Shown one piece after another: positions 1,331 to 30,096 of a stretch of 32,000 nucleotides of DNA; the first letter of the stretch is position 1, and each line of letters begins with the position of its first letter. This DNA comes from Candidatus Scalindua sp. (lineage in GTDB: Bacteria; Planctomycetota; Brocadiia; Brocadiales; Scalinduaceae): contig JALDRA010000001.1 in NCBI GenBank assembly GCA_031316235.1, positions 2,730,001 through 2,762,000 on the forward strand, in the 5' to 3' direction. The notes below the pieces were generated by a model. That model was not told the DNA's origin. It saw nothing but the letters and a program-made list of their open reading frames with translations, and made no database searches. The position numbers were made by a program, and so were the translations under genes.

Positions 1331-3070
1331 TTACATCTTCTCAGCTGCTTTGAGGCCAAGTATAGAGAGTCCATTTTTTATGACTACTCTTGCTGCTTCC
1401 AGTAAAAGTATCCTGGCCTTTCTTAATTCGTTGTCGTCTGTGAGAATCCTGTGATGTTGATAATATCGGTTAAATGTGCTGCAAAGATCGAGGAGATGGT
1501 TACTGAGGAGGGAAGGTTCATAATTTTCTGCTGCCCGTAAAAGTACAAGAGGGAAGTCTGCAAGTAGTTTGATTAATACGAGCTCATCGTCTTCTTTGAG
1601 CAGATCGTAGTGCACGCTGGTAGTGATGTTTTCCCCGTACTTCCTTAATATACTGCACATGCGTGCATGGGTGTATTGAACATACGGACCTGTTTCTCCA
1701 TCAAAATTAAGAATTACGTCCCAGTCAAATAAAACGTCTTTAACCCTTTTTGTACATAGTTCAGAAAATAGTATGGCCCCAATACCAACGCTTTCCGCTA
1801 CTTCCTCTCTATTTTCCAGGCCAGGATTTTTTTCTTCTATTATCTCGTCTGCAATTTTACAGGATTCTTCGAGTAAATCTTCCAGGAGAATGACCTTGCC
1901 TTCTCTCGTAGACATTTTGCCTTGTTTGAACTTAATCAGTCCGAAATCGACGTGTGCACAGTTATGAACCCACTCGTATCCCATATCTTCTAAGACCTTG
2001 AAAAACTGTTTGAAATGTAACCTCTGTTCCGAACCGACAACGTAGGCCATTTTATCAAAATTATACTTCCGTTTTCTATATTCGGCGGCACAGATATCCC
2101 TGGTGGCATACAGGCTTGCTTCATCCTTCTTTCTCAAGATACAGGGGGGCATATTATATTTTTCAAGATTTACGATCAAGGCATCCTCACTGATTTCCGT
2201 TAATCCTGAATCCTTGATTCTCTGAACGGTATCATCAAGCATTTCATTATAAAAACTTTCTCCCGCGTAGGAATCGAAGCTGATACCCAGCCTTTTGTAT
2301 ACACGCTCAAATTCCATCAAGCTTATCTCTTTAAAATGATGCCAGGCCTCTTTTGCCTCTTTATCCCCATCCTCCAGTTTTTTGAACCAATCCCTGGCTT
2401 CTTCCTCCAGATTTTTGTTAATTTTTGCCTCTTTATGAAACTTAACATACAACTCATTAAGTTTGCTTACGGTAAGTTTCTTTTTTGTTGCCGAATTCTG
2501 TTCATGAGAATTCCCAGCTGATGAAACTGCGAAGTCTAAACCCCATTTTTTCAAGGCAACAATAAGCTGTCCAAATTGTGTTCCCCAATCTCCCAGGTGA
2601 TTGATACCGATGCATTTGTATCCCAGTACGTTGTAAAGGTTGTAGATTGCGTTTCCAATGACAGCTGATCGTAGATGATGAACTGCCAGGTGTTTTGCAA
2701 TGTTTGGGGAAGAATAATCAATTATAATGGTCTTACCCTTGCCAACGGCATGGTTTCCGTAAGATGCTCCTTTGTCAGAAATTTCCTCTAAAACAGTCTT
2801 GAACAGTAATGGTTTCGATACATGGAAATTGAGATACGGGCCGTTGGCCGTTATCTCGACTATGATATCATCGGGAACAAGTTTTTGTGATAATTCTGCC
2901 GCAATCTTTTTAGGATCTTTTCTTAATTGTTGTGCTAGGGAGAAACATGGGAGCGCATAATCACCCATCTTATTGTCTGGCGGCTGTTCCAGCAGCTCTT
3001 TTATTTTATCCGGGGGGAGAGATATCTCATCCCCCAGTAAGCCGATGATAGTATTGATGAAAAGATCCAT
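1331..3070 (-). CDS. argS: Arginine--tRNA ligase
   Basis: Class I synthetase motifs are present: SSPNIAKHLAVHHLRS (HIGH-type) and GKMSTREG (KMSKS-type), plus HLGDWGTQFG. The listed ORF runs to 3184, but the ATG at 3070 (MDLFINTIIG...) gives 579 aa, the usual ArgRS length. The start is ambiguous between 3070 and 3184. Confidence 0.9.
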   Translation of the reverse strand: MDLFINTIIGLLGDEISLPPDKIKELLEQPPDNKMGDYALPCFSLAQQLRKDPKKIAAELSQKLVPDDIIVEITANGPYLNFHVSKPLLFKTVLEEISDKGASYGNHAVGKGKTIIIDYSSPNIAKHLAVHHLRSAVIGNAIYNLYNVLGYKCIGINHLGDWGTQFGQLIVALKKWGLDFAVSSAGNSHEQNSATKKKLTVSKLNELYVKFHKEAKINKNLEEEARDWFKKLEDGDKEAKEAWHHFKEISLMEFERVYKRLGISFDSYAGESFYNEMLDDTVQRIKDSGLTEISEDALIVNLEKYNMPPCILRKKDEASLYATRDICAAEYRKRKYNFDKMAYVVGSEQRLHFKQFFKVLEDMGYEWVHNCAHVDFGLIKFKQGKMSTREGKVILLEDLLEESCKIADEIIEEKNPGLENREEVAESVGIGAILFSELCTKRVKDVLFDWDVILNFDGETGPYVQYTHARMCSILRKYGENITTSVHYDLLKEDDELVLIKLLADFPLVLLRAAENYEPSLLSNHLLDLCSTFNRYYQHHRILTDDNELRKARILLLEAARVVIKNGLSILGLKAAEKM

Positions 3071-3341
3071 GGTATACAGAAATTGATAAAGAGTATTGGC
3101 AATCCACAACCTTCCAGTATAAGGATTTTTACTTTTATAGAAAGATAGAAATTCTTCGCACTGATACGGTGAGATGTTTCTCAATCATCTTATTGTACAA
3201 AAGAGTAGATTCACCCTGTTTCCTCATTAATATTTTTTGTCCTCTATTATAAAAAACCTGTACGTTACTTCTACAAAAATAATTTTTATTTTCCGGAGTG
3301 AAGTAGTGCCCTGTTTCCTGTTGTTTCAATGGTGAGAACGG

Positions 3342-3456
3342 ATATACTAAAACTGATCTGGTTTTCGGTTTTACCGGAAACCAGATCTTGGTGAAGGTAT
3401 ACTCGCTCAATTTTATCTCGGATTTCATCCGAAAACCATTATGAGATGAGTATATC
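3342..3456 (+). repeat. Copy A (full length) of a dispersed modular hairpin repeat; strand is only a reference orientation
   Basis: Perfect 8-bp inverted termini GATATACT (3341-3348) and AGTATATC (3449-3456). Module 1 (3342-3400) matches 29996-30054 with 4 mismatches in 59 nt. Module 2 (3401-3455) matches 26401-26455 with 4 mismatches in 55 nt. Inner stem TCGGAT/ATCCGA lies at 3418-3432. Confidence 0.85.
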
Positions 3457-3637
3457 AATGAGATCTCTCCTGTCTCGATCATTTTGAGCACTCGATTCCC
3501 TCTCCTTTTTTCCTTTTGTTGATGTCCGGCAGCACAAAGACAATTATTCCTGAGTTACGATAATTTTTACACTGCCGTTGTTGAAAACTTTTGTCTTTTC
3601 TGCACTATTTTCAGAATCATTTTACCCGTTTGATAAC

Positions 3638-4192
3638 TTATGCAGGTTTTGTAGATTTTTCAACGTAAGCGGCAAGGATTCCTGCAAGCAGACCGGAAAG
3701 ATGCCCTTCCCAGGAAATACGTGAAAGTGTGGGCAATACTCCCCAGATGATTCCTCCGAATAGAGAAACGGTAAAAAATGCAGTGAGAAAGGATTTCAGG
3801 CTGCGATCATACCATGCCCGAATGACCAGATATCCGAAGTAGCCAAAGATAAGGCCGCTTGCGCCAACATGGCAGGATGAACGTCCAAAGAGCCAGAGAA
3901 TTGAGCCGCTTACAATGATAATGATAGTGGTTATCTCAAAGAACAGCCGCTTTCCATGGAGCATAACAAAGCCTCCGAGTACCGCTAAGGGTATGGTGTT
4001 TACCATAGTATGGTTTAAACTTGAGTGCAAAAAAGGACTTAAGGGTATTCCGATAAGCCCTTTTACCGTTCGAGGTACTATTCCCCAGCTGCTGAGGATG
4101 TGTCCTGTGGACAAATTTATGAATTCGATTATCCATAGTGCTGCCACAAACCCGAAAATCCAATAAATACTCTTTTTTGTTTCTTGTTTCAT
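3638..4192 (-). CDS. Rhomboid family intramembrane serine protease
   Basis: 184-aa polytopic membrane ORF with the catalytic GxSG motif (HVGASGLIFGYFG) and a downstream His-containing helix (GHLSGLLAGILAA). Confidence 0.85.
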   Translation of the reverse strand: MKQETKKSIYWIFGFVAALWIIEFINLSTGHILSSWGIVPRTVKGLIGIPLSPFLHSSLNHTMVNTIPLAVLGGFVMLHGKRLFFEITTIIIIVSGSILWLFGRSSCHVGASGLIFGYFGYLVIRAWYDRSLKSFLTAFFTVSLFGGIIWGVLPTLSRISWEGHLSGLLAGILAAYVEKSTKPA

Positions 4193-5905: not shown

Positions 5906-6069
5906 ACGATAGTGTCTGAACGGAAACCCTGTCTTTGAATGAAAACTTCCCAGGAAACAAGGCAGTCTGATTCCGTAACCTGAGCGAAATAGTGTACTTG
6001 AGGATTAAGGAGTCTTTACAGCTATGCAGGAGGGGGTGTGACTTTCTTTCTGCGGCACAGTACGAATAC

Positions 6070-7539
6070 TTACTCCCTGATATAGTTGTAAATATTCAGA
6101 TAATGAATGCCTGGTGAGTTCCAGGAGTAGTCATATTTCATACCATTCATCATTAATTCCCTGAAGTACTGTGGATGTGAATTCCACATGCCGATTGCAC
6201 GACGCATGGCTGATTCCAGCCCCTCTTCATTGAAATGATGAAATACATATCCATTTCTTTCATGGAAAGGTTTGTCTGAGTTATCAGCATCAAAAACGGT
6301 ATCTCCTAATCCTCCCGTATCCCTCACAACCGGTATTGTTCCATACTTCATGGCTATTAACTGTGTTAACCCGCACGGCTCAAACAGGCTGGGCAGGATC
6401 ATCATGTCAGCACCCGCATAAATCAAGTGGGCCAGTTCCTCGTTATAGCCAATTTCAAGATGGCAATCAGGATTATCGTTTAGCTGGTGTTTCAGTTGCC
6501 AAAAATAGTTATTCAGGTCATGATCAGTGCTGGAACCAAGAAGTACAAACTGGCAACCATTTCCCAATGCGTAAAAGATTGCGTGTCTGATAAGATGAAC
6601 CCCCTTTTGGTGATCAAGTCTTCCAACGTAAGCGAAAAGAGGCTTAAAATCCAGTCTAAGCATTAACCTCTGGCGGAGCACTTCCTTATTTCCGAATTTG
6701 TGATCAAGTCTGTCGATTCCATAATTGTACGGTATGTTTCTATCAATCTCGGGGTTCCAAAAATCGTAATCTATACCGTTTAAGACTCCGCCAAATTTAT
6801 TCCGATGTTCGTAAAGGGTGTGGCCGAGACCAAAACCCTGATCTGTGGTCATTATTTCGTTTGCATACCTGGGAGATACTGTTGTGACAAAATTTGAATA
6901 GACAATTCCTCCTTTCATCAAATTTATGGCGGAGGAATTGAAATTGTCCTTCAGGCGGTCCTGGTTACAATAATGACCAGTATTGTTCAAGCCGACTTCT
7001 CTGAGTATAAATTCCCCGGTTACACCTTGATGTTTCAGGTTGTGGAGTGTGTAACATACACGAGGGTGTGTCATACCTTGATTCTTGTAAAGGTCAAATA
7101 AAAGTACCGGGACGAGGCCTGTTTGCCAGTCATGGCAGTGAATAATCTCGGGATGTTTTTCGGTTCTTATCATAAATTCCAGAGAGGCCCTGCAGAAAAA
7201 AGCAAACCTTTCCGGGTCATCATGATGACCATAATAGAGGCCACGGTTAAAAAGATTCCTTTCAGAATGAGGTTCTATGAAGAAGCACTTTCGACTGTGA
7301 ACGAAACCAAAAAAGACAGAGCAATGAACCTGCTGGTCGTAAAAAGGAACCCAGAGATCGTGTAACACTTTCTGGAGCCCATAAATGTGCTCATAACGCA
7401 TACAGTCGTATTTGGGAAGTATAATTTCAACATCGTTTCCCCTGATTTCAAGTTCGCGGCTGAGCCCATATATTACATCGGCAAGACCACCTACTTTTGC
7501 CACAGGGGCACACTCAGTTGCAATCATGATAATATACAT
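6070..7539 (-). CDS. glgA: Glycogen synthase (ADP-glucose type)
   Basis: The N-terminus MYIIMIATECAPVAKVGGLADV carries the KVGGL signature, followed by a GT5/GT1-type C-terminal half. The listed ORF starts at a TTG at 7554. The ATG at 7539 is preceded by GGGAGG (7547-7552) and is preferred. Confidence 0.92.
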   Translation of the reverse strand: MYIIMIATECAPVAKVGGLADVIYGLSRELEIRGNDVEIILPKYDCMRYEHIYGLQKVLHDLWVPFYDQQVHCSVFFGFVHSRKCFFIEPHSERNLFNRGLYYGHHDDPERFAFFCRASLEFMIRTEKHPEIIHCHDWQTGLVPVLLFDLYKNQGMTHPRVCYTLHNLKHQGVTGEFILREVGLNNTGHYCNQDRLKDNFNSSAINLMKGGIVYSNFVTTVSPRYANEIMTTDQGFGLGHTLYEHRNKFGGVLNGIDYDFWNPEIDRNIPYNYGIDRLDHKFGNKEVLRQRLMLRLDFKPLFAYVGRLDHQKGVHLIRHAIFYALGNGCQFVLLGSSTDHDLNNYFWQLKHQLNDNPDCHLEIGYNEELAHLIYAGADMMILPSLFEPCGLTQLIAMKYGTIPVVRDTGGLGDTVFDADNSDKPFHERNGYVFHHFNEEGLESAMRRAIGMWNSHPQYFRELMMNGMKYDYSWNSPGIHYLNIYNYIRE

Positions 7540-7629
7540 TCTTCCGCCTCCCAACCCGCCAGAGCCACAACCAGAAAGAGATAAATTCCTTGTGTGCTCC
7601 GGCTCTGCCGGGTTGTTAAATGAAAACCG

Positions 7630-7669
7630 CCTGTCTGCCGTCTGCCTGTGCGTGTTGCATGCAGACAGG
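7630..7669 (-). terminator. Candidate intrinsic terminator downstream of glgB
   Basis: 9-bp GC-rich inverted repeat CCTGTCTGC (7630-7638) / GCAGACAGG (7661-7669). On the minus strand it is followed by cggTTTTcaTTT. The loop is long (22 nt), and an alternative stem exists (CCTGTGC 7645-7651 / GCACAGG 7676-7682). Confidence 0.35.
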
Positions 7670-7787
7670 TTTCCGGCACAGGTAGATAGATTTTTTAACT
7701 TTCCCTAAAAAAATACTAATATCAGTACAGTCGCACTACTCAGAACTCCAACCGTATCAGTCTTCAGGTTTATATCGAGAGAATTGA

Positions 7788-9740
7788 TCATATATTTTTT
7801 TCGTTCATTGGTTTTAATATTAAAACACCAAGAGGCGGCAGGTTTAACTTGAGAGAGCAGGGTCTTTCTCGAAAGGATACTGCTTCTGAATACACACCAC
7901 CACTGTTGCCAACATTACTGCCCCAGTATTCAGTGGCATCACTGTTAAGGATTTCCCTGTAAAATCCTCCTTTCGATATTCCAACCCTGTAATCATACCT
8001 TGGAACGGATGTGAAATTTAATACGAAGATTAAGAAATCATTGGAATTTTTTGCCTTCCGCATAAAGGCAATGATGCTTTGTTCATAATCGCTAAAGTCA
8101 AGCCACTCAAAACCATCATTTGAAAAATCAAGCTCATGCAATGCAGATTCTGTTCTGTATAAATGGTTTAAGTCTTTGACCCACCTTTGTAAACCTTGAT
8201 GTGAGGGATATTGAAGAACAAACCATTCTAAACTCTCATCGTGGTTCCACTCTTTGTATTGGCCGAATTCACCACCCATAAAGAGGATTTTCTTTCCGGG
8301 ATGACCATACATGAATCCAAATAAAAGTCTGAGATTTGCAAAACGCTGCCACTCATCTCCCGGCATCTTGCCAATGAGTGAACCCTTACCATGGACAACC
8401 TCGTCATGTGAGAGCGGAAGGGCAAAATTCTCAGAAAAGGCATACCAGATACTGAAGGTAAGCTCATTGTGATGATATTTTCTGAAGACAGGGTCTTTTG
8501 AGATGTATTCTAAGGTATCGTGCATCCAGCCCATATTCCATTTCATACCAAAACCCAGCCCCCCGATATGTGTTGGTCTTGAAACCATAGGCCATGATGT
8601 AGACTCTTCAGCTATCACTTGAACATCATGATGTGTGGTGTATATGCTTTCGTTCAGTTTTTTTATTAATTCTATGGCATCAAGATCCTCTTTGCCGCCA
8701 TATTTGTTGGGTATCCACTCCCCTTCTTTTCTTGCGTAATCAAGATAGAGCATGGACGCAACAGCGTCAACCCTGATGCCGTCAATGTGATATTTATCAA
8801 GCCAGAAGAGGGCACTGCTGATGAGAAATGCTCGTACCTCGTTTCTGCTGAAGTTAAAAATCGAGCTCTTCCATTCCGGATGAAACCCTTTCTTGGGATC
8901 AGCATGCTCGTAAAGATGAGTACCGTCAAAATAGGAAAGTCCATATTCATCAGAGGGGAAATGGGAAGGGACCCAGTCAAGGATTACACCGATACTGTTT
9001 CGATGGAGGTAATCCAGCAGGTACATGAAGTCCTGGGGGGTGCCGTATCTCCTTGTCGGAGCAAAGTAGCCTGTAGTTTGATACCCCCAGGAGCCATAAA
9101 ACGGATGCTCCATAATCGGGAGAAATTCAACGTGGGTAAATTCCATCTCCTTGACATAGTCTGTAAGTAAATGTGCCATCTCCCTGTAGTTAAGAAACAG
9201 ATTCCCTTCGTCATCCTTCCTCTTCCATGAGCCGAGATGAACTTCATAGATAGAAAAAGGTGCCTGTAATGCGTTGTATTTGCTTCGGCTACGCATCCAC
9301 TCATCATCATTCCATTGATAGTCGAGATCCCAAACAATGGACGCAGTTTTGGAAGGTAATTCCCATGAGAAGGCGAATGGGTCTCCTTTATCGACACGAT
9401 AGTTATGATATTTTGAGACTATGTGATATTTATAGATAGTGCCTTTCTTTAAACCGGGAATAAAATTTTCCCATATGCCAGATCTGTCTCTTCTCATATT
9501 GAGAGGGTGAGACTTTCTATTCCATCCATTAAAATCCCCGATAACAGAGACTTTTTCTGCATTTGGTGCCCACACAGAAAAGTAGACTCCTTCCTCTCCA
9601 TTCATAGACACAAGGTGAGAACCAAATTTATCATAGAGTTTGAAATGATTTCCCTCCTTGAAAAGATAGATATCGTGGTCGGTGAATAAACTCAAGTTGT
9701 CCGGAACTCTCTCAATGTTGTCATTCTGTTCTCTTACCAT
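7788..9740 (-). CDS. glgB: 1,4-alpha-glucan branching enzyme
   Basis: 650 aa with an N-terminal CBM48-like region ([22 protein letters not shown]). GH13 catalytic regions are [31 protein letters not shown] and [12 protein letters not shown]. Confidence 0.95.
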
Positions 9741-16574: not shown

Positions 16575-16950
16575 TTATAATACTCCACCAAGATTAGAAA
16601 GTAGTATAAAAAACGGATAATACCAAGAAACACAAGAAAAAACAACATTATTTACCCTTATGAGTCAAGGCAAAATAGAGTTTTCAGACAGCGGTTAGTA
16701 GAGATTCGTCTCCTGCATCAGACAAAGAGGGCTCGATAATTACTCCTTGCATGCAAAAAGATCTTACGGTAAAATTTCATCTGCCATCTTTACACGATGA
16801 AGACGATAAAGGGCAATACGGTTGAACAGTAAGCAGTTGATTTTCAATTTCATAGTAATCATAAGTTTATGAAAGGGGTTATTTCTTGACGTGGTGAAAA
16901 AATGAGCAAAGACATTTTTCTTGCTATTCCGATACGGGAGGATTACTTAT

Positions 16951-18099
16951 ATGATGGTATACAACGTAATAGTAAAAAAACCTTTATTATTGGTAATTGC
17001 TTTATTACTTGTTGGATGTAATAACTTCAGAATTTCATTTGCCGAATCAGACATTCCGCCGTGGCAGATGTTTCGGCATGATTTCAGACATACTGGACTC
17101 AGTCCTTACAAAGGAGCTCAAGGAGACAATCTGAAATGGTCTTTCAAAACAGATGAAAGAATTACGTCATCAGCGGCAATTGGTCTGGACGGAACGATCT
17201 ATTTCGGTTCTGTAGATGGGAGATTATATGCAGTAACTCCCGGGGGTAAACTCAGATGGAGTTTCAAGACAGGAGATGAGGTTACTTCTTCTCCTGCCAT
17301 AGGAGATGATGGGACGGTTTATTTCGGATCAAGGGATAACAAGTTATATGCTGTAACCCCGGATGGAACTCTCAAGTGGTCATATGAGACAGGTGGTGCA
17401 ATCTTCTCTTCACCTACCATTGGCAGGAACGATATGATTTTCTTTGGATCAGGAGATGGCATCATGTATGCGGTTGATCTCTCAGGCAAGCTGAAATGGA
17501 TCTACAAAAACAGGCTTTACAGCCCGATAAGTTCTTCGCCATCAATAGGCCCGGATGGATCGATTTGTTTCATGGCCAACAAAGGAGTTATTTATGCGTT
17601 GCATCCAGATGGTTCCGAAAAATGGAAACTCAGAATAGGCAGCAATGCATACAGCTCTTTCTCTTCACCGTCAGTAGGTGAAGACGGTACTGTTTATGTT
17701 GGCTCTGAAAATGGGAGAGCGTATGCTATCACTCCACATGGAAAGATCAAGTGGATTGTTAATACAGGAAAGAGTGTCCAATCTTCTCCTGCAATAGGAA
17801 GTGATGGAACTGTATACTTCGGTTCGTACGATAAAAAGGTGTACGCGATAAATGCTGACTGTACGCTTAAGTGGAGCTTTGAAACAAATGGTTGGATAGA
17901 ATCCTCACCAGCGGTGGATCAATCCGGAACCGTCTATATCGGTTCAAGCGATGGAAGTCTCTACGCAATAGATTCCGGTGGAAAACTCAAATGGAGTTAT
18001 CAAACCGATGGTTGGATAGAATCGTCACCCCTGATAGGTGCGGATGGAACCGTCTATTTCGGTTCGAACGATACCCACCTTTATGCAATCGGCAACTGA
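16951..18099 (+). CDS. PQQ-like (BamB-type) beta-propeller repeat lipoprotein
   Basis: About eight ~40-aa blades of the type DGTVYFGSxDxKLYAxxxxGxLKWSxxT. The ATG at 16951 follows GGGAGG (16936-16941). The N-terminus MMVYNVIVKKPLLLVIALLLVGC ends in a lipobox. The listed TTG at 16921 is rejected. Confidence 0.85.
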   Translation: MMVYNVIVKKPLLLVIALLLVGCNNFRISFAESDIPPWQMFRHDFRHTGLSPYKGAQGDNLKWSFKTDERITSSAAIGLDGTIYFGSVDGRLYAVTPGGKLRWSFKTGDEVTSSPAIGDDGTVYFGSRDNKLYAVTPDGTLKWSYETGGAIFSSPTIGRNDMIFFGSGDGIMYAVDLSGKLKWIYKNRLYSPISSSPSIGPDGSICFMANKGVIYALHPDGSEKWKLRIGSNAYSSFSSPSVGEDGTVYVGSENGRAYAITPHGKIKWIVNTGKSVQSSPAIGSDGTVYFGSYDKKVYAINADCTLKWSFETNGWIESSPAVDQSGTVYIGSSDGSLYAIDSGGKLKWSYQTDGWIESSPLIGADGTVYFGSNDTHLYAIGN

Positions 18100-26340: not shown

Positions 26341-26455
26341 ATGATGAGTATACCAAATCCCGGTTAATGGTATTCCCGGACAAAAAACGCCGAGGACTTT
26401 ACTCGCTCAATTTTATCTCGGATTTTATCCGAAATCCAGTATGAGATGAGTATAA
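26341..26455 (+). repeat. Copy B of the dispersed repeat (composite: end fragment, truncated module 1, 27-nt linker, module 2)
   Basis: 26401-26455 matches 3401-3455 with 4 mismatches in 55 nt. ACCAAATCCCGGTTAATGGTAT (26352-26373) aligns with the 3' end of module 1. The linker begins TCCCGGACAAA, the same junction seen after module 1 in copy D. The leading ATGATGAGTAT resembles the element's right end. Confidence 0.8.
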
Positions 26456-26562
26456 AATGGTTACGTGACAGTAACATGAGTCAGAGTAAAGGCTTTTTTA
26501 AACGTCTCAGTATTGAGGCCTTCTATAATTTCAAATTCTTTAAATAATTGTGGGATAGTAAA

Positions 26563-27165
26563 ATGCGACAAAATAAGATAAACATACTTGTTATTGATGA
26601 TGAAAAAGATGTGTGTGAAACGTTAAAAAAACCTCTTACAGATAGCGGTTATAATGTTAATATCGTAACAAAACCTAAAAGAACACTGCAGGAGCTGAAG
26701 AAGAGACCATACCACCTCATTATCCTCAACTTCAAGATGCTGGAAATGAAAGGTGAGGACCTGTTAAGTGAAATGAGAAAAATTAATTCTGATATAGTGA
26801 TCATTATCTTAACAGCTGATCCGTCTTTACATTCTGCAGTGAAAACGTTAAAGGATAATACCTTTGATTACATCAAGAAACCATTTAAGATTGCTGAACT
26901 TAAAGAGATAGTAAGAAAAGCTTTGAGATCAAAGATGGTACTGCGGAAACCAGAGGAAGAATTGAATTTGAAAATAGGATCAAAGTTAAGAGGGTTAAGA
27001 AAAGAACGGAGGCTTACTTTGAAGCAACTTGCAGAAAGAGCAGGGATATCTGTGAGTCTCATTTCACAGATAGAACGTGCAGAAAGCGCTGCCTCTATTT
27101 CAACTTTAAATAAGATTGTGAATATTCTGAATATCAGACTGAGGGATATTTTCAAGGAGATTTAG
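26563..27165 (+). CDS. Atypical response regulator: receiver domain (Asn at the phospho-acceptor position) fused to an XRE/Cro-C1-type HTH
   Basis: Receiver motifs ILVIDDE, LTAD and KKPF are present, but HLIILNFKMLEMKG has Asn (codon AAC, 26728-26730) where Asp is expected. The C-terminal IGSKLRGLRKERRLTLKQLAERAGISVSLISQIERAES is a classic HTH_XRE. The ATG at 26563 is preferred over the listed TTG at 26548. Confidence 0.8.
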   Translation: MRQNKINILVIDDEKDVCETLKKPLTDSGYNVNIVTKPKRTLQELKKRPYHLIILNFKMLEMKGEDLLSEMRKINSDIVIIILTADPSLHSAVKTLKDNTFDYIKKPFKIAELKEIVRKALRSKMVLRKPEEELNLKIGSKLRGLRKERRLTLKQLAERAGISVSLISQIERAESAASISTLNKIVNILNIRLRDIFKEI

Positions 27166-27239
27166 GCAAGGTATACCAGTCGAGAATTAACAATAGAGAA
27201 TTCTCGATACACACAAATATGATATGTCATAATACTTTT

Positions 27240-27362
27240 ATGACAGAGTTTACCCTGTCACAAGCAGAATTATCTAAGCTGAAAGCGGCACACAGAGCAG
27301 CTAAGAAAAAGCGAGAAGCAGACCACATAAAAACGATTATCTTTCTGGGTACCGAATGGACA
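27240..27362 (+). pseudogene. Probable N-terminal fragment of an IS630-family transposase (relic)
   Basis: MTEFTLSQAELSKLKAAHRAAKKKREADHIKTIIFLGTEWT resembles the N-terminal HTH region of IS630-type transposases (LS..E...L......K..READRI..ILL...GW). The frame then diverges and stops at 27431. No DDE domain follows. Confidence 0.35.
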
Positions 27363-27498
27363 TTCCGTGAGCATGTAAATCTTTTTTCAGGCAGAGTAAA
27401 AAATATAAGGAAGATATTTCCTCTTTCTTAGAAGTAGAGTAGGTCTTTCTATTTTATCATTATTGCTTATCCCTTTCATTACCCTTTGAGTCACACCA

Positions 27499-28002
27499 TC
27501 ATTGCGGGTTCTCTTTTTTTGTGGCAGCGCAATTTTCCTTTCTTGGAGTTAAACCTCTGAACATTTTCGCCAGTATGCCATCAATTGAAAATTTACCTCC
27601 ACCTCTGACAATAAGCGCTACTGCGAGTGCAATAGCAAGTAAGTGGTACTCATATCCCTCGCCCTTCTGCTTGCCGAACCAGTTCATAAAAAACCCGTGT
27701 GGAAGATGAACCATGAATATTGCAACAATCATGTTCGTTGCAATGCCTAAAGCCGCTATTCTTGTAAAAAATCCTGTGATAAGGGCAACCGCTCCGATTG
27801 ATTCGGCCATGATTGCGAGGAATGCCAAAAGAACAGGAATCCCCATTTTTTCAGTAAAGAAACCCATTGTCTCGCTAAAACCGCTGCCTTCAAACCATCC
27901 CAGTAATTTCTGGGCACCGTGAGGGAAAAAAACTATTCCCAATGAAACTCTCATAATAAGGCTCGATATATCATCATCTGTTTTCAGTAATTTATTGAAC
28001 AC
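27499..28002 (-). CDS. DoxX family membrane protein
   Basis: 167 aa with four TM helices. DoxX-type motifs are GIVFFPHGAQKLLGWF and VHLPHGFF ... GYEYHLLAIALAVALIVRGGGKFSID. A GTG start at 28002 follows AAGGAG (28009-28014) at 6-nt spacing. Confidence 0.85.
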   Translation of the reverse strand: MFNKLLKTDDDISSLIMRVSLGIVFFPHGAQKLLGWFEGSGFSETMGFFTEKMGIPVLLAFLAIMAESIGAVALITGFFTRIAALGIATNMIVAIFMVHLPHGFFMNWFGKQKGEGYEYHLLAIALAVALIVRGGGKFSIDGILAKMFRGLTPRKENCAATKKENPQ

Positions 28003-28099
28003 TTTTGACTCCTTTCATATGTGGTATGATGCTTTTTACACAATGAATAGCGGCACGTACCATAAACGGTATTTTATGAAGTAAATTATTTCATTACTT

Positions 28100-28146
28100 C
28101 CTCTTGTCTCGAATTTTATCAGAAAACCATTATAAGATGAGTATAA
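28100..28146 (+). repeat. Copy C of the dispersed repeat (module 2 only, inner hairpin deleted)
   Basis: CTCGAATTTTATCAGAAAACCATTATAAGATGAGTATA aligns with module 2 of copies A and B but lacks the TCGGAT/ATCCGA inner stem. It ends in the shared GAGTATA terminus (28139-28145). Confidence 0.65.
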
Positions 28147-28182
28147 ATCAAAAATAGACGGTCTGGATCTCTCAAAAACCGG

Positions 28183-28749
28183 TTAAATATCCTTTCCTAT
28201 TGAGAATGCCTTACCGAGATTTTTTCCAACACCGTAGTAGCTTCTTGTCCCGGGGGAATAGAAGACAGGTTTTATCTTTTCAATGTCGGGGTCATCACCA
28301 TTCTCAAGTACAGATTCTTCGGCCTTCACATCCACAATTTCACCTATAAACTGGGTGTGTAATCCTATTTCAATAGTGTGGAGAAGTTTGCATTCAATGA
28401 TAAAGGGGAATTCTGAAATATAGGGAGCATCGACCTTGTCGCTTTTGGTCGGGGTGAGTCCCGTCCTGGAAAATTTATCTTCGTCTGTTCCGGAGACTAT
28501 TCCAAAATAATCTGCTTCCTTACTGTAGGTTTCTGATGGGATGTTTATGGTAAATGACTTCCGTTCAACAATATTCTTGTAGGATTGTCTACTCTTTCTA
28601 AGCGAAATACATACACAGGGCGGCTTTGAACAACAAATTCCTCCCCACGCGACATTCATCGCGTTCGCCTTGCCGGATGTGTCATATGTGCCTACAATAA
28701 AAGTCGGTGTCGGAAAGGCTATGGTTTTCGGACCTAAAGATTTTTTCAT
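28183..28749 (-). CDS. Flavin reductase-like (FMN-binding split-barrel) family protein
   Basis: 188 aa. The N-terminus [65 protein letters not shown] fits the flavin reductase-like domain pattern. Confidence 0.75.
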
Positions 28750-28791
28750 AATTGAGCTCCTTGGAATAGATAAATGAATAAGAAAACTGGA

Positions 28792-29850
28792 TTATTTAAT
28801 GAGAATCTTCTCGTTGTACTTTCTCCATACGTCCTGCAACAGGTCATGGTTCTGTTGAATGATGATTAACCAAGAGTTCATCCTTTCTGCATTGGACCTG
28901 TCTTCCCAGTGAAGAAAGAGATCCGAAGCGTTGCCAAGCGGAATTCTTTTGTCTTCAGGATGGATCTCAAAGGTAAATGAAACGAGTTCCGTGCTGAGTG
29001 CTTTTACTGTTTCCCCTACTATTTCTGTGAGGCCGAATGAACCAAACATTGGATCCAGTGTTTTTCTCCCCCGGTATTCAAAGGGGATTGGTATCTCGCT
29101 CAGGAAACTGATATGATCTGAAACTCCATACTCGCTGACTGTAGAAAGCGGGTGCCCGTCGTGTAGATGGAAATGAAGAGGTTTTTCAAGCTTACCTAAT
29201 GTCTGGATTAACTTCAACACAGCAGGTAGTGCGGTATGGACCGAACTTTCAACGTCTGTGATGACTTCCTTAAGAAATGCATCACTGGGTGAAAGGGTGC
29301 ATACGTCCGTTCCAGGATGGTTGAGGAAAAAGTCCTCTCTTGCCTGCTGTATACCAACATGGCCTATGTCAATACAGGCACTCACCTGTTTAAGATGATG
29401 GATACGGGTAAATAGATCAATAAAGAGCTTCGGTTCTAACCCTACAGCATATTCTATAAAGAGATATGGACTCTCATGAAGCGCCGATAATTGATATTGA
29501 ATTGTTTGCAGTGTTTCGACATAATCACTAAAACAATCAGATATTTCATCCTGGTCGTGGATGACCAGACCGTAAATCTTTCCTGAATATGCTGAAGCAA
29601 AATCCAGGATCAGTCTTCGGCTATCTTCCTCCAGGATATTGATGTTGCGGTGAAGGTGTACGACAACGGGACTTTCTGGAGACGGTATAAAACCAAACAG
29701 CCAGCCAAGTTCATCGAGTGTTTCGGCATAAAACTCGGCTCCTAGTCCTGATTCTTGAAAACGAAGGCTTGCGAGCTGTAAGAGAGCGTCATCTCCTTCA
29801 AACATTTTTTTAAAGAGTGCCATGAGACGCGGATAATCACGGTTATGCAT
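28792..29850 (-). CDS. Hypothetical protein, probably a xylose isomerase-like TIM-barrel (sugar phosphate isomerase/epimerase superfamily)
   Basis: 352 aa. The spaced motifs VVVHLH, LFIEYAVG, CIDIGHVG, LHFHLHDGH and FTFEIH resemble the His/Asp/Glu metal-ligand strands of AP-endonuclease-2/xylose-isomerase-like barrels. Family call is tentative. Confidence 0.45.
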   Translation of the reverse strand: MHNRDYPRLMALFKKMFEGDDALLQLASLRFQESGLGAEFYAETLDELGWLFGFIPSPESPVVVHLHRNINILEEDSRRLILDFASAYSGKIYGLVIHDQDEISDCFSDYVETLQTIQYQLSALHESPYLFIEYAVGLEPKLFIDLFTRIHHLKQVSACIDIGHVGIQQAREDFFLNHPGTDVCTLSPSDAFLKEVITDVESSVHTALPAVLKLIQTLGKLEKPLHFHLHDGHPLSTVSEYGVSDHISFLSEIPIPFEYRGRKTLDPMFGSFGLTEIVGETVKALSTELVSFTFEIHPEDKRIPLGNASDLFLHWEDRSNAERMNSWLIIIQQNHDLLQDVWRKYNEKILIK

Positions 29851-29995
29851 GGATAATTAAGAGTATCAGTAGAGAAGAATGATGTAAATTACGAAACATT
29901 AAAAAGCGCTGTAAAACTCACAAAATCACCGATTGTTGTTAGGGTAATTCTTAAAGGGATATATTATAACAGATAAAATGGTTTTTTTAACGTAA

Positions 29996-30078
29996 ATATA
30001 CTAAAACCGATTTTGTTTTCGGTTTTACCGGAAACCAAATCTTGGTGAAGGTATCTCCGGACAAACCAGGTGCCGGGG
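29996..30078 (+). repeat. Copy D of the dispersed repeat (module 1 plus linker start, no module 2)
   Basis: 29996-30054 matches 3342-3400 with 4 mismatches in 59 nt and no indels. It continues CTCCGGACAAACC, as the linker in copy B does. It contains the 8-bp stem TCGGTTTT/AAAACCGA (30004-30011 / 30020-30027 region). Confidence 0.85.
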
Positions 30079-30096
30079 ACGGGTGAGAACGGCAAG

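Follow-up and report, generated by a model that had tools for sequence, protein, structure and literature searches.

The 32,000-nt stretch of Candidatus Scalindua sp. chromosome analysed here (contig JALDRA010000001.1, positions 2,730,001 to 2,762,000; hereafter the window) contains, at 3342–3456, a short repeat that is very likely a copy of a miniature inverted-repeat transposable element (MITE) of the IS630 type. It is made up of two hairpin modules, module 1 and module 2. A sequence-only reading of the window had described the repeat as dispersed and hairpin-forming and had offered three interpretations, namely a TA-flanked MITE of the IS630/mariner type, a REP-like hairpin and a structured cis-acting RNA. 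The first of these is supported by a duplicated TA target, by genome-wide dispersal and by ends that resemble those of IS630 insertion sequences (IS) from the same lineage, and the element was probably moved by an IS630-type transposase. The family is apparently a new and undescribed one of a well-known kind; no description of a MITE in Scalindua, in anammox bacteria or in Planctomycetes was found in the literature searched, which excluded subscription journals and ISfinder.

Evidence for the target duplication comes from sites within a second dispersed repeat, here termed family B. Seven empty family-B copies read ...CGCGCCTTG-TA-CCTGGGCA..., with a single TA (CCTTG-TA-CCTGG), whereas the filled copy at locus L004 reads ...CCTTG-TA[TACTAAAACC...GAGATGAGTG]TA-CCTGGG..., the inserted element running from TACT to AGTG. 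At L037 the element occupies the same family-B TA in the opposite orientation, and L006 and L039 are also filled at this position; TA was read on both sides for L004, L037 and L039, and only the left junction was read for L006. Comparison of the empty and filled sites thus indicates that insertion duplicates TA and that the element proper extends from TACT to AGTA. Among 33 distinct complete copies, A was found at position -1 in 24 and T at position +1 in 15, giving a target preference of A-TA-T. This preference explains why the inverted repeat of the focal copy runs past six bases. The perfect 8-bp terminal repeat claimed for it, GATATACT at 3341–3348 and AGTATATC at 3449–3456, is present in the window exactly as given, but as a family trait it shrinks to TATACT/AGTATA, within which the outer TA is the duplicated target; base pair 7 of the focal repeat reflects the target preference, and base pair 8 is due to chance.

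With a length of about 150 nt and the inverted ends GTGTTTGAACGAAAAC / GTTTTCGTTCAGACAC, family B has at least 27 matches in about 300 kb of Scalindua loci (L016 1230–1385, L019, L018, L015, L032, L033 and others), together with one degenerate copy in the window (5910–6006, - strand). Most aligned copies are flanked by a 6-bp direct repeat, TAnnTA (exact in 8 of 12), so family B is probably another MITE. The element has inserted repeatedly at the central CCTTG-TA-CCTGG of family B.

The element is widely dispersed within a narrow range of hosts. The 22-nt core of module 1 was scanned for exact matches against one genome per species (185,579 species, 596 Gb), yielding 38 matches, all in three Scalindua or Scalinduaceae metagenome-assembled genomes (MAGs): SCAELEC01 (20), RBC_AMX3 (12) and a long-read Scalinduaceae assembly (6). 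The core was found in none of the remaining genomes among these species, and no copy was found in the viral contig and plasmid collections, both of which were searched. A further 23 copies of at least 50 nt, without the exact core, lie within the 8-kb neighbourhoods of core matches; copies are therefore clustered, a pattern that would fit local hopping. Flanks are unrelated from copy to copy, with common flanks at only a few loci (L011/L023, L014/L017 and L009/L019). Earlier suggestions of a genome-wide family and of strictly intergenic placement are both borne out, the former by the 38 core copies in three genomes, their 23 neighbours, the four copies in the window and the unrelated flanks, the latter by overlaps limited to short, doubtful open reading frames (ORFs). 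Short-read contigs of the focal locus (SRR28338161/2) stop inside module 1 and inside module 2, because a multi-copy repeat breaks the assembly.

A link to IS630 was established through an insertion sequence in the long-read Scalinduaceae MAG. This 1119-bp IS (L043 124–1242) interrupts a rhomboid gene whose orthologue is intact in the window (3638–4192). The protein encoded by the IS (343 aa) scores 210 bits against NCBIfam transpos_IS630 (cut-off 100) and also matches Pfam DDE_3, HTH_33 and HTH_29. The IS is flanked by TA on both sides, and a single TA lies close to this point in rhomboid genes that are not interrupted. In eight more copies of the same clade (L044–L051), TA flanks every end present; the right end of L047 is degenerate, and L049 has a left flank of only about 5 bases and a right flank of 1. 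The left end of the clade reads TA followed by TAC(T/C)(A/G)GTCACGAAA..., and the right end reads ...ACCTAAAACCATTTCGTAATGAGTA followed by TA. When the 20 bases beyond TATACT were compared with the right end of the IS, the right end of the element matched at 15 of 20 positions (binomial P ~1e-5) and its left end, in the form of the family consensus, at 13 of 20 (binomial P ~4e-4). The IS's own left end matched its right end at 11 of 20, and 251 other TATACT sites in the same DNA, serving as a control, gave a mean of 5.6 and a maximum of 12.

A transposase of this kind appears to be available in the host. The protein P0155, an 'IS630 family transposase' of the L043 clade (81% identical), scores 197 bits on transpos_IS630 (cut-off 100); its gene lies almost certainly on the same contig as that of the window's ArgRS and hence in the window's genome. 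IS630-family elements have also been reported in other anammox genomes (PMC7814187). Attempts to find a closer partner led back to the same clade. Across about 300 kb of loci, element copies have no multi-copy or transposase-like ORF next to them. When metagenomes were scanned with a pattern conserved inside the IS, a single additional IS was recovered, again of this clade, and no IS with closer ends came up. Six further look-ups by protein recovered the same clade. Partial left ends in L018 and L031 proved to be decayed or loop-variant copies and not the ends of an autonomous partner. Taken with the ends and the TA target, these data are consistent with a DDE transposase of the IS630/Tc1-mariner type that, supplied in trans, would bind both ends of the element, cut it out and paste it into a TA. 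Shorter architectures would arise from longer ones by deletion of hairpins, and effects on neighbouring genes, whether as promoter, terminator or RNA hairpin, would be a by-product and not the element's reason to exist.

In the focal copy, the element proper (3345–3452, + strand) is 108 nt long, reads TACT...AGTA and contains a complete module 1 and module 2, matching the full-length profile hidden Markov model (HMM) with E = 4e-34. It is bounded by the left copy of the duplicated TA at 3343–3344, which belongs to the family-wide TATACT start, and by the right copy at 3453–3454, within the AGTATA end, both identified as target by the empty and filled family-B sites. The left terminal inverted repeat (TIR), TACTAAAACTGATCTGGTTTTCGG, spans 3345–3368 (+ strand) and has the TACT tip and, at positions 15–24, TGGTTTTCGG in common with the right end. 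The right TIR, CCGAAAACCATTATGAGATGAGTA, spans 3429–3452 (+ strand) and is the end with the 15/20 match to the right end of the Scalindua-lineage IS630. Module 1 is predicted to fold into a hairpin at 3355–3387 (+ strand) with a 14-bp stem (3355–3368 / 3374–3387) and the loop TTTTA, in which the left TIR is paired with a degenerate inverted copy of itself. Sequence, predicted fold and pair counts show module 2 (3400–3452, + strand) to be a degenerate inverted right TIR followed by the right TIR, with an inner hairpin TCGGAT-TTC-ATCCGA at 3418–3432. The region 3335–3462 is predicted to form two hairpins on the + strand (-47.2 kcal/mol, z = -6.6), the - strand fold reaching -38.9 kcal/mol; the hairpin-forming nature proposed earlier, including the inner stem, is thus upheld by prediction. 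The focal copy is 94–96% identical to 112-nt copies of another Scalindua genome.

Every complete copy in the family runs from a TATACT start to an AGTATA end, with lengths from 112 to 227 nt. Three architectures account for the shorter lengths: module 1 + module 2 (112–113 nt), module 1 + M3 + module 2 (about 139 nt) and module 1 + M4 + M3 + module 2 (166 nt), where M3 is CCCCGGAC..CCGAGGAC with a loop of variable length and M4 is CTGCCCG..CGGGCAG. Extra GC-rich hairpins in the module 1 loop or in the module 2 inner loop bring the length up to 227 nt. The optional hairpins differ from one another and occupy four distinct positions. Two variants of the linker that follows module 1 occur, TGAAGGTAT and TTGCAGTTAT, of which the latter looks like a collapsed M4. 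No TA duplication was found at the junctions of the optional hairpins, and for this reason the shorter forms are read as probable deletion products. The TIRs are imperfect and about 24 nt long, comprising the TACT tip, a variable stretch and then TGGTTTTCGG; the left end reads TACTAAAACCGATTTGGTTTTCGG and the right end, reverse-complemented, TACTCATCTCATAATGGTTTTCGG, with TACT and TGGTTTTCGG in register in both. Two copies are perfect palindromes. L012 6275–6331, the counterpart of module 1, is the left end twice, and L021 5038–5094, the counterpart of module 2, is the right end twice. They resemble minimal palindromic elements, and the common form resembles two units of this kind fused head to tail. 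The element carries no gene, with stops in five of the six consensus frames and only 36 codons in the sixth.

Some further variation was seen in and around the copies. In a few of them the core of the module 1 hairpin is inverted, with GGTTTCCGGTAAAACCGAAAACC in place of GGTTTTCGGTTTTACCGGAAACC (L005 5707–5878, L035 6448–6585 and L012 6275–6331), as if flipped between the flanking inverted repeats. In one MAG, a 166-nt copy with M4 and M3 (L009 3494–3659) and a 112-nt copy (L019 761–872) share the same ~70-nt left and 35-nt right flank, which points either to modules lost in place or to a third repeat family as host of the element. At L031 (~6990–7950), two small overlapping ORFs, which read from their sequence as a vapBC-like toxin-antitoxin pair, are bracketed by direct, decayed module 1-type copies with the same unusual loop (7082–7104 and 7923–7945). 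An RVT_1 reverse-transcriptase ORF (32–922, - strand) shares locus L012 with a minimal palindromic element and may belong to a group II intron or a retron.

Run on the window, profile HMMs based on 33 related copies found exactly four copies, all on the + strand. Besides the complete copy at 3343–3454 (E = 4e-34), there is a 5'-truncated copy at 26350–26454 lacking the first ~35 model positions (HMM positions 36–139, E = 3e-28), which consists of a remnant of the module 1 right arm, the optional hairpin M3 (26371–26399) and module 2 and ends in the right TA at 26453–26454. A diverged copy at 28097–28145 contains module 2 only (28101–28145 in the set of four HMM matches; module 2 HMM E = 4e-13 for 28097–28146; 76% identity over the 55-nt span 28091–28145), and a 3'-truncated copy at 29997–30080 has module 1 and an M3-like hairpin and lacks module 2 (HMM positions 1–82, E = 3e-22). 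The count of four clear copies plus one diverged copy given by the sequence-only reading therefore stands for the four; the extra fragment, 26341–26352, is on its own no better than chance. The recurrences on which that count was based were reproduced, module 1 (3342–3400) recurring at 29996–30054 with 93% identity and module 2 (3400–3454) at 26400–26454 with 95% and at 28091–28145 with 76%. Allowing up to 3 mismatches, the core motifs occur 3 and 2 times in the window, with 0.07 and 0.00 expected from dinucleotide shuffles.

The three partial copies lie within 3.7 kb (26350–30080). The right end is intact in the first of them and the left end in the last, with four genes between these two copies, encoding a response regulator, DoxX, a flavin reductase and an unknown 352-aa protein. 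Similar three-copy clusters are present in L005, L020 and L024. The 11-mer GGTGAGAACGG is found immediately 5' of the complete copy (3331–3341) and immediately 3' of the truncated copy (30082–30092); elsewhere it is not part of the element family, and its occurrence here may be chance.

Several observations weigh against the assignment to IS630-type MITEs. The left end of the element compares poorly with the left end of the IS (8/20). None of the nine IS copies read has ends identical to those of the element, the nearest clade reaching 65–75% over the 20 bases beyond TATACT, and since no IS with matching ends was found, the exact partner transposase is one that we infer. The evidence from empty and filled sites comes from related genomes and not from the focal copy, at which no clean empty site was found, relatives holding either a transporter gene there or the element across argS. 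Selection by an exact 22-nt core favours young copies. Finally, copies share 95–100% identity whether they come from one species or from different ones (at least four species, with syntenic coding DNA 81–84% identical), and this high identity covers the whole 112-nt sequence, not the ends alone, which is more conservation than expected of a purely neutral selfish element. At the orthologous site L006/L025, the element is identical except for a linker variant, and the flank beyond ~30–60 nt no longer aligns. Possible causes of the near-identity across species include constraint on a master copy, gene conversion, reinsertion at hot spots, recent horizontal spread and selection at the level of the host. 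It is thus conceivable, if unlikely, that the element is more than a selfish MITE, either a hairpin mosaic adopted by the host or a sequence that spread recently and horizontally, with its IS630 partner, between marine anammox species. A host-adopted role may involve, for example, RNA hairpins that set transcript ends or stability, or a DNA structure that binds protein.

If the host had selected the element for its structure, it could act in RNA, as an mRNA stabiliser, terminator, processing site or small RNA, or in DNA, as a protein binding site, with mobility serving only to seed it. The strong predicted folds (z = -6.6 on the + strand) and the G-U pairs, which favour the + strand, are in keeping with this, as are the consensus, 95–100% identical across species with about 82% coding identity, the orthologous L006/L025 copy with its diverged flanks, and a sigma-70-like match, directed towards argS, in which the right-end TATACT serves as the -10 box with an upstream TG. 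That match, however, is a pattern match found at the level of the consensus only. A strand-specific RNA function would predict an orientation bias, and none was seen: of the elements that measure at least 50 nt and have callable genes on both sides, 13 share the orientation of tandem flanking genes and 10 have the opposite one, and a further 11 lie in divergent and 8 in convergent gaps, so that gaps of all three kinds are used alike. Paired cells make up 88% of the total in 29 module 2 sequences and 93–94.5% in 26 module 1 sequences, but compensatory cells number only 2 and 3, values that 6 and 21 of the 500 shuffles equalled or exceeded, and the majority of changes disrupt pairing; the copies are very alike, which leaves the covariation test with low power. 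Diverged copies lose pairs without compensation, and truncated copies persist. No Rfam 15 family matched at its gathering score anywhere in the window, in agreement with the sequence-only reading, which had recognised no known RNA family in it, and at E <= 1 the only hits were two chance-level eukaryotic families (17–18 bits against cut-offs of 36–55). With no strand bias, unconvincing covariation and no Rfam match, the structured cis-RNA interpretation is not sustained, and a host-selected element of either kind is quite improbable. An archaeal origin with a C/D-box-like ATGATGA motif was also considered and dropped, the host being Scalindua.

Somewhat less remote is a MITE moved by another TA-duplicating transposase, from a different IS630 subfamily or another DDE family, the likeness to the IS ends then reflecting distant kinship. 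End matches of only 15/20 and 13/20, and the lack of identical ends among the nine IS copies, would be expected in that case. This is nonetheless improbable, as the combination of TA duplication, TACT tip and shared subterminal TGGTTTT motif is specific, both ends of the element are nearer to the IS right end than is the IS's own left end (11/20), and the window's genome almost certainly codes for a transposase from this clade. A REP/BIME-type repeat or an IS200/IS605-derived palindrome, moved as single-stranded DNA by a tyrosine (Y1/RAYT) transposase, could account for the hairpin-rich, modular, mosaic build and for the restriction to sites between genes. It is very improbable, since neither a 2-bp target duplication nor TIRs are expected for Y1 transposition, the ends resemble those of a DDE-type IS, the units are hairpins of 55–60 nt instead of 20–40 nt, and neither the consensus nor its ends contain a GTAG or CGTC tag as defined in PMC3733652. 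The IS200/IS605-derived form in particular was ruled out by the inverted termini and the TA duplication, and the REP-like reading does not survive the same evidence. No Y1 transposase turned up among the proteins scanned, although no search was aimed at Y1 transposases. Least credible of all is that the copies are by-products of segmental duplication or assembly. Common flanks at L011/L023, L014/L017 and L009/L019 point that way, but most flanks are unrelated in four independent assemblies, including long-read contigs of 2–4 Mb, and copy boundaries are sharp at TA. The observations that the sequence-only reading had named as damaging to its proposal were looked for, and the results were more copies, no larger segmental duplications and no earlier description. 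An IS630-type MITE therefore remains the preferred identification.

Outside the repeats, the window is ordinary chromosome, with genes for glycogen metabolism, two-component systems, argS, a class I Trp/Tyr-type tRNA synthetase (PF00579) and a multihaem cytochrome. Domain scans found no transposase among the window proteins. The arginyl-tRNA synthetase (ArgRS) of the window is 100% identical to one from a Candidatus Scalindua MAG. Repeats with a 120-nt period at 17191–18089, inside ORF 16921–18099, are PQQ/beta-propeller blades and likewise ordinary. The complete copy lies 273 nt upstream of argS (1331–3070, - strand) and 184 nt downstream of the rhomboid gene (3638–4192, - strand). An ORF overlapping it, 3135–3491 on the - strand, had been suspected of being an artefact and is indeed spurious: annotated ArgRS has 579 aa, which places the start of argS at 3070, and the frame at 3135–3491 is open because one frame of the element consensus happens to be open. 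An MFS transporter gene (MFS_1; L041 1610–2914) separates the rhomboid gene from argS in Scalindua sp. AMX11 and in the Scalinduaceae MAG. The transporter gene is absent from the window (3185–3637), where 273 nt including the element are found in its place, and AMX11 has a module 1 + module 2 copy on the opposite side of argS. The element thus marks a rearranged junction, and its presence differs between species. The window's arrangement at 3185–3637 amounts to gene loss or replacement at an element-bearing junction.

The nearest known element, in kind and in type of evidence, is RUP of Streptococcus pneumoniae, a 107-bp MITE with a TA target and ends like those of IS630-Spn1, its proposed mover (PMC2229807, PMC3049150). 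Like RUP, the Scalindua element is ~110 nt long, non-coding, AT-rich, intergenic, hairpin-forming and TA-inserting, its link to IS630 rests on end similarity and the TA target, and it tends to insert in other repeats, in this case family B. The two occur in different phyla, no sequence relationship between them is expected, and whereas RUP is a simple element (PMC3049150), the Scalindua element is a mosaic of two hairpin modules with optional hairpins, whose end similarity to the IS was found to be only moderate. It shares with the Correia (NEMIS) elements of Neisseria TA termini, target duplication and TIRs of ~24 bp, as well as long and short versions distinguished by an internal block; Correia transcripts fold into long hairpins, and Correia ends have described functional motifs, such as an IHF site (PMC2229807). 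In contrast to Correia, for which the accessible part of PMC2229807 names no cognate transposase, an IS630 clade with related ends was found for the Scalindua element.

Modularity of another kind is seen in BOX of pneumococcus (boxA-boxB(n)-boxC), which is also a composite with a variable number of internal modules and whose internal module folds independently, so is dispensable without disturbing the rest (PMC3049150). While BOX has tandem copies of one unit, the optional modules of the Scalindua element are different GC-rich hairpins at four positions. BOX is also less similar to IS ends and has no evidence of TA duplication comparable to that for the Scalindua element. The Scalindua element also recalls the REP/BIME repeats of proteobacteria in forming intergenic mosaics of palindromic units. 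REPs move by means of RAYT tyrosine transposases without target duplication, unlike the Scalindua element, with its TA duplication and DDE-type ends reading TACT. According to PMC3733652, REPs are palindromes of 20–40 bp tagged GTAG or CGTC.

In practical terms, the element family explains breaks in short-read Scalindua assemblies and provides a marker with which strains can be typed and genome rearrangement followed in marine anammox bacteria, of which there is no pure culture. Annotators can mask the element and discard ORFs such as 3135–3491. Our understanding of transposition is unchanged by it, and further study might be worthwhile only for the near-identity across species and the mosaic build. 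Resting jointly on a duplicated target, similar ends and a transposase encoded by the same genome, the connection between this element and IS630 is among the better-supported ties between a bacterial MITE and an IS. The two fused minimal palindromes and the optional hairpins, in turn, suggest how composite MITEs may grow and shrink.

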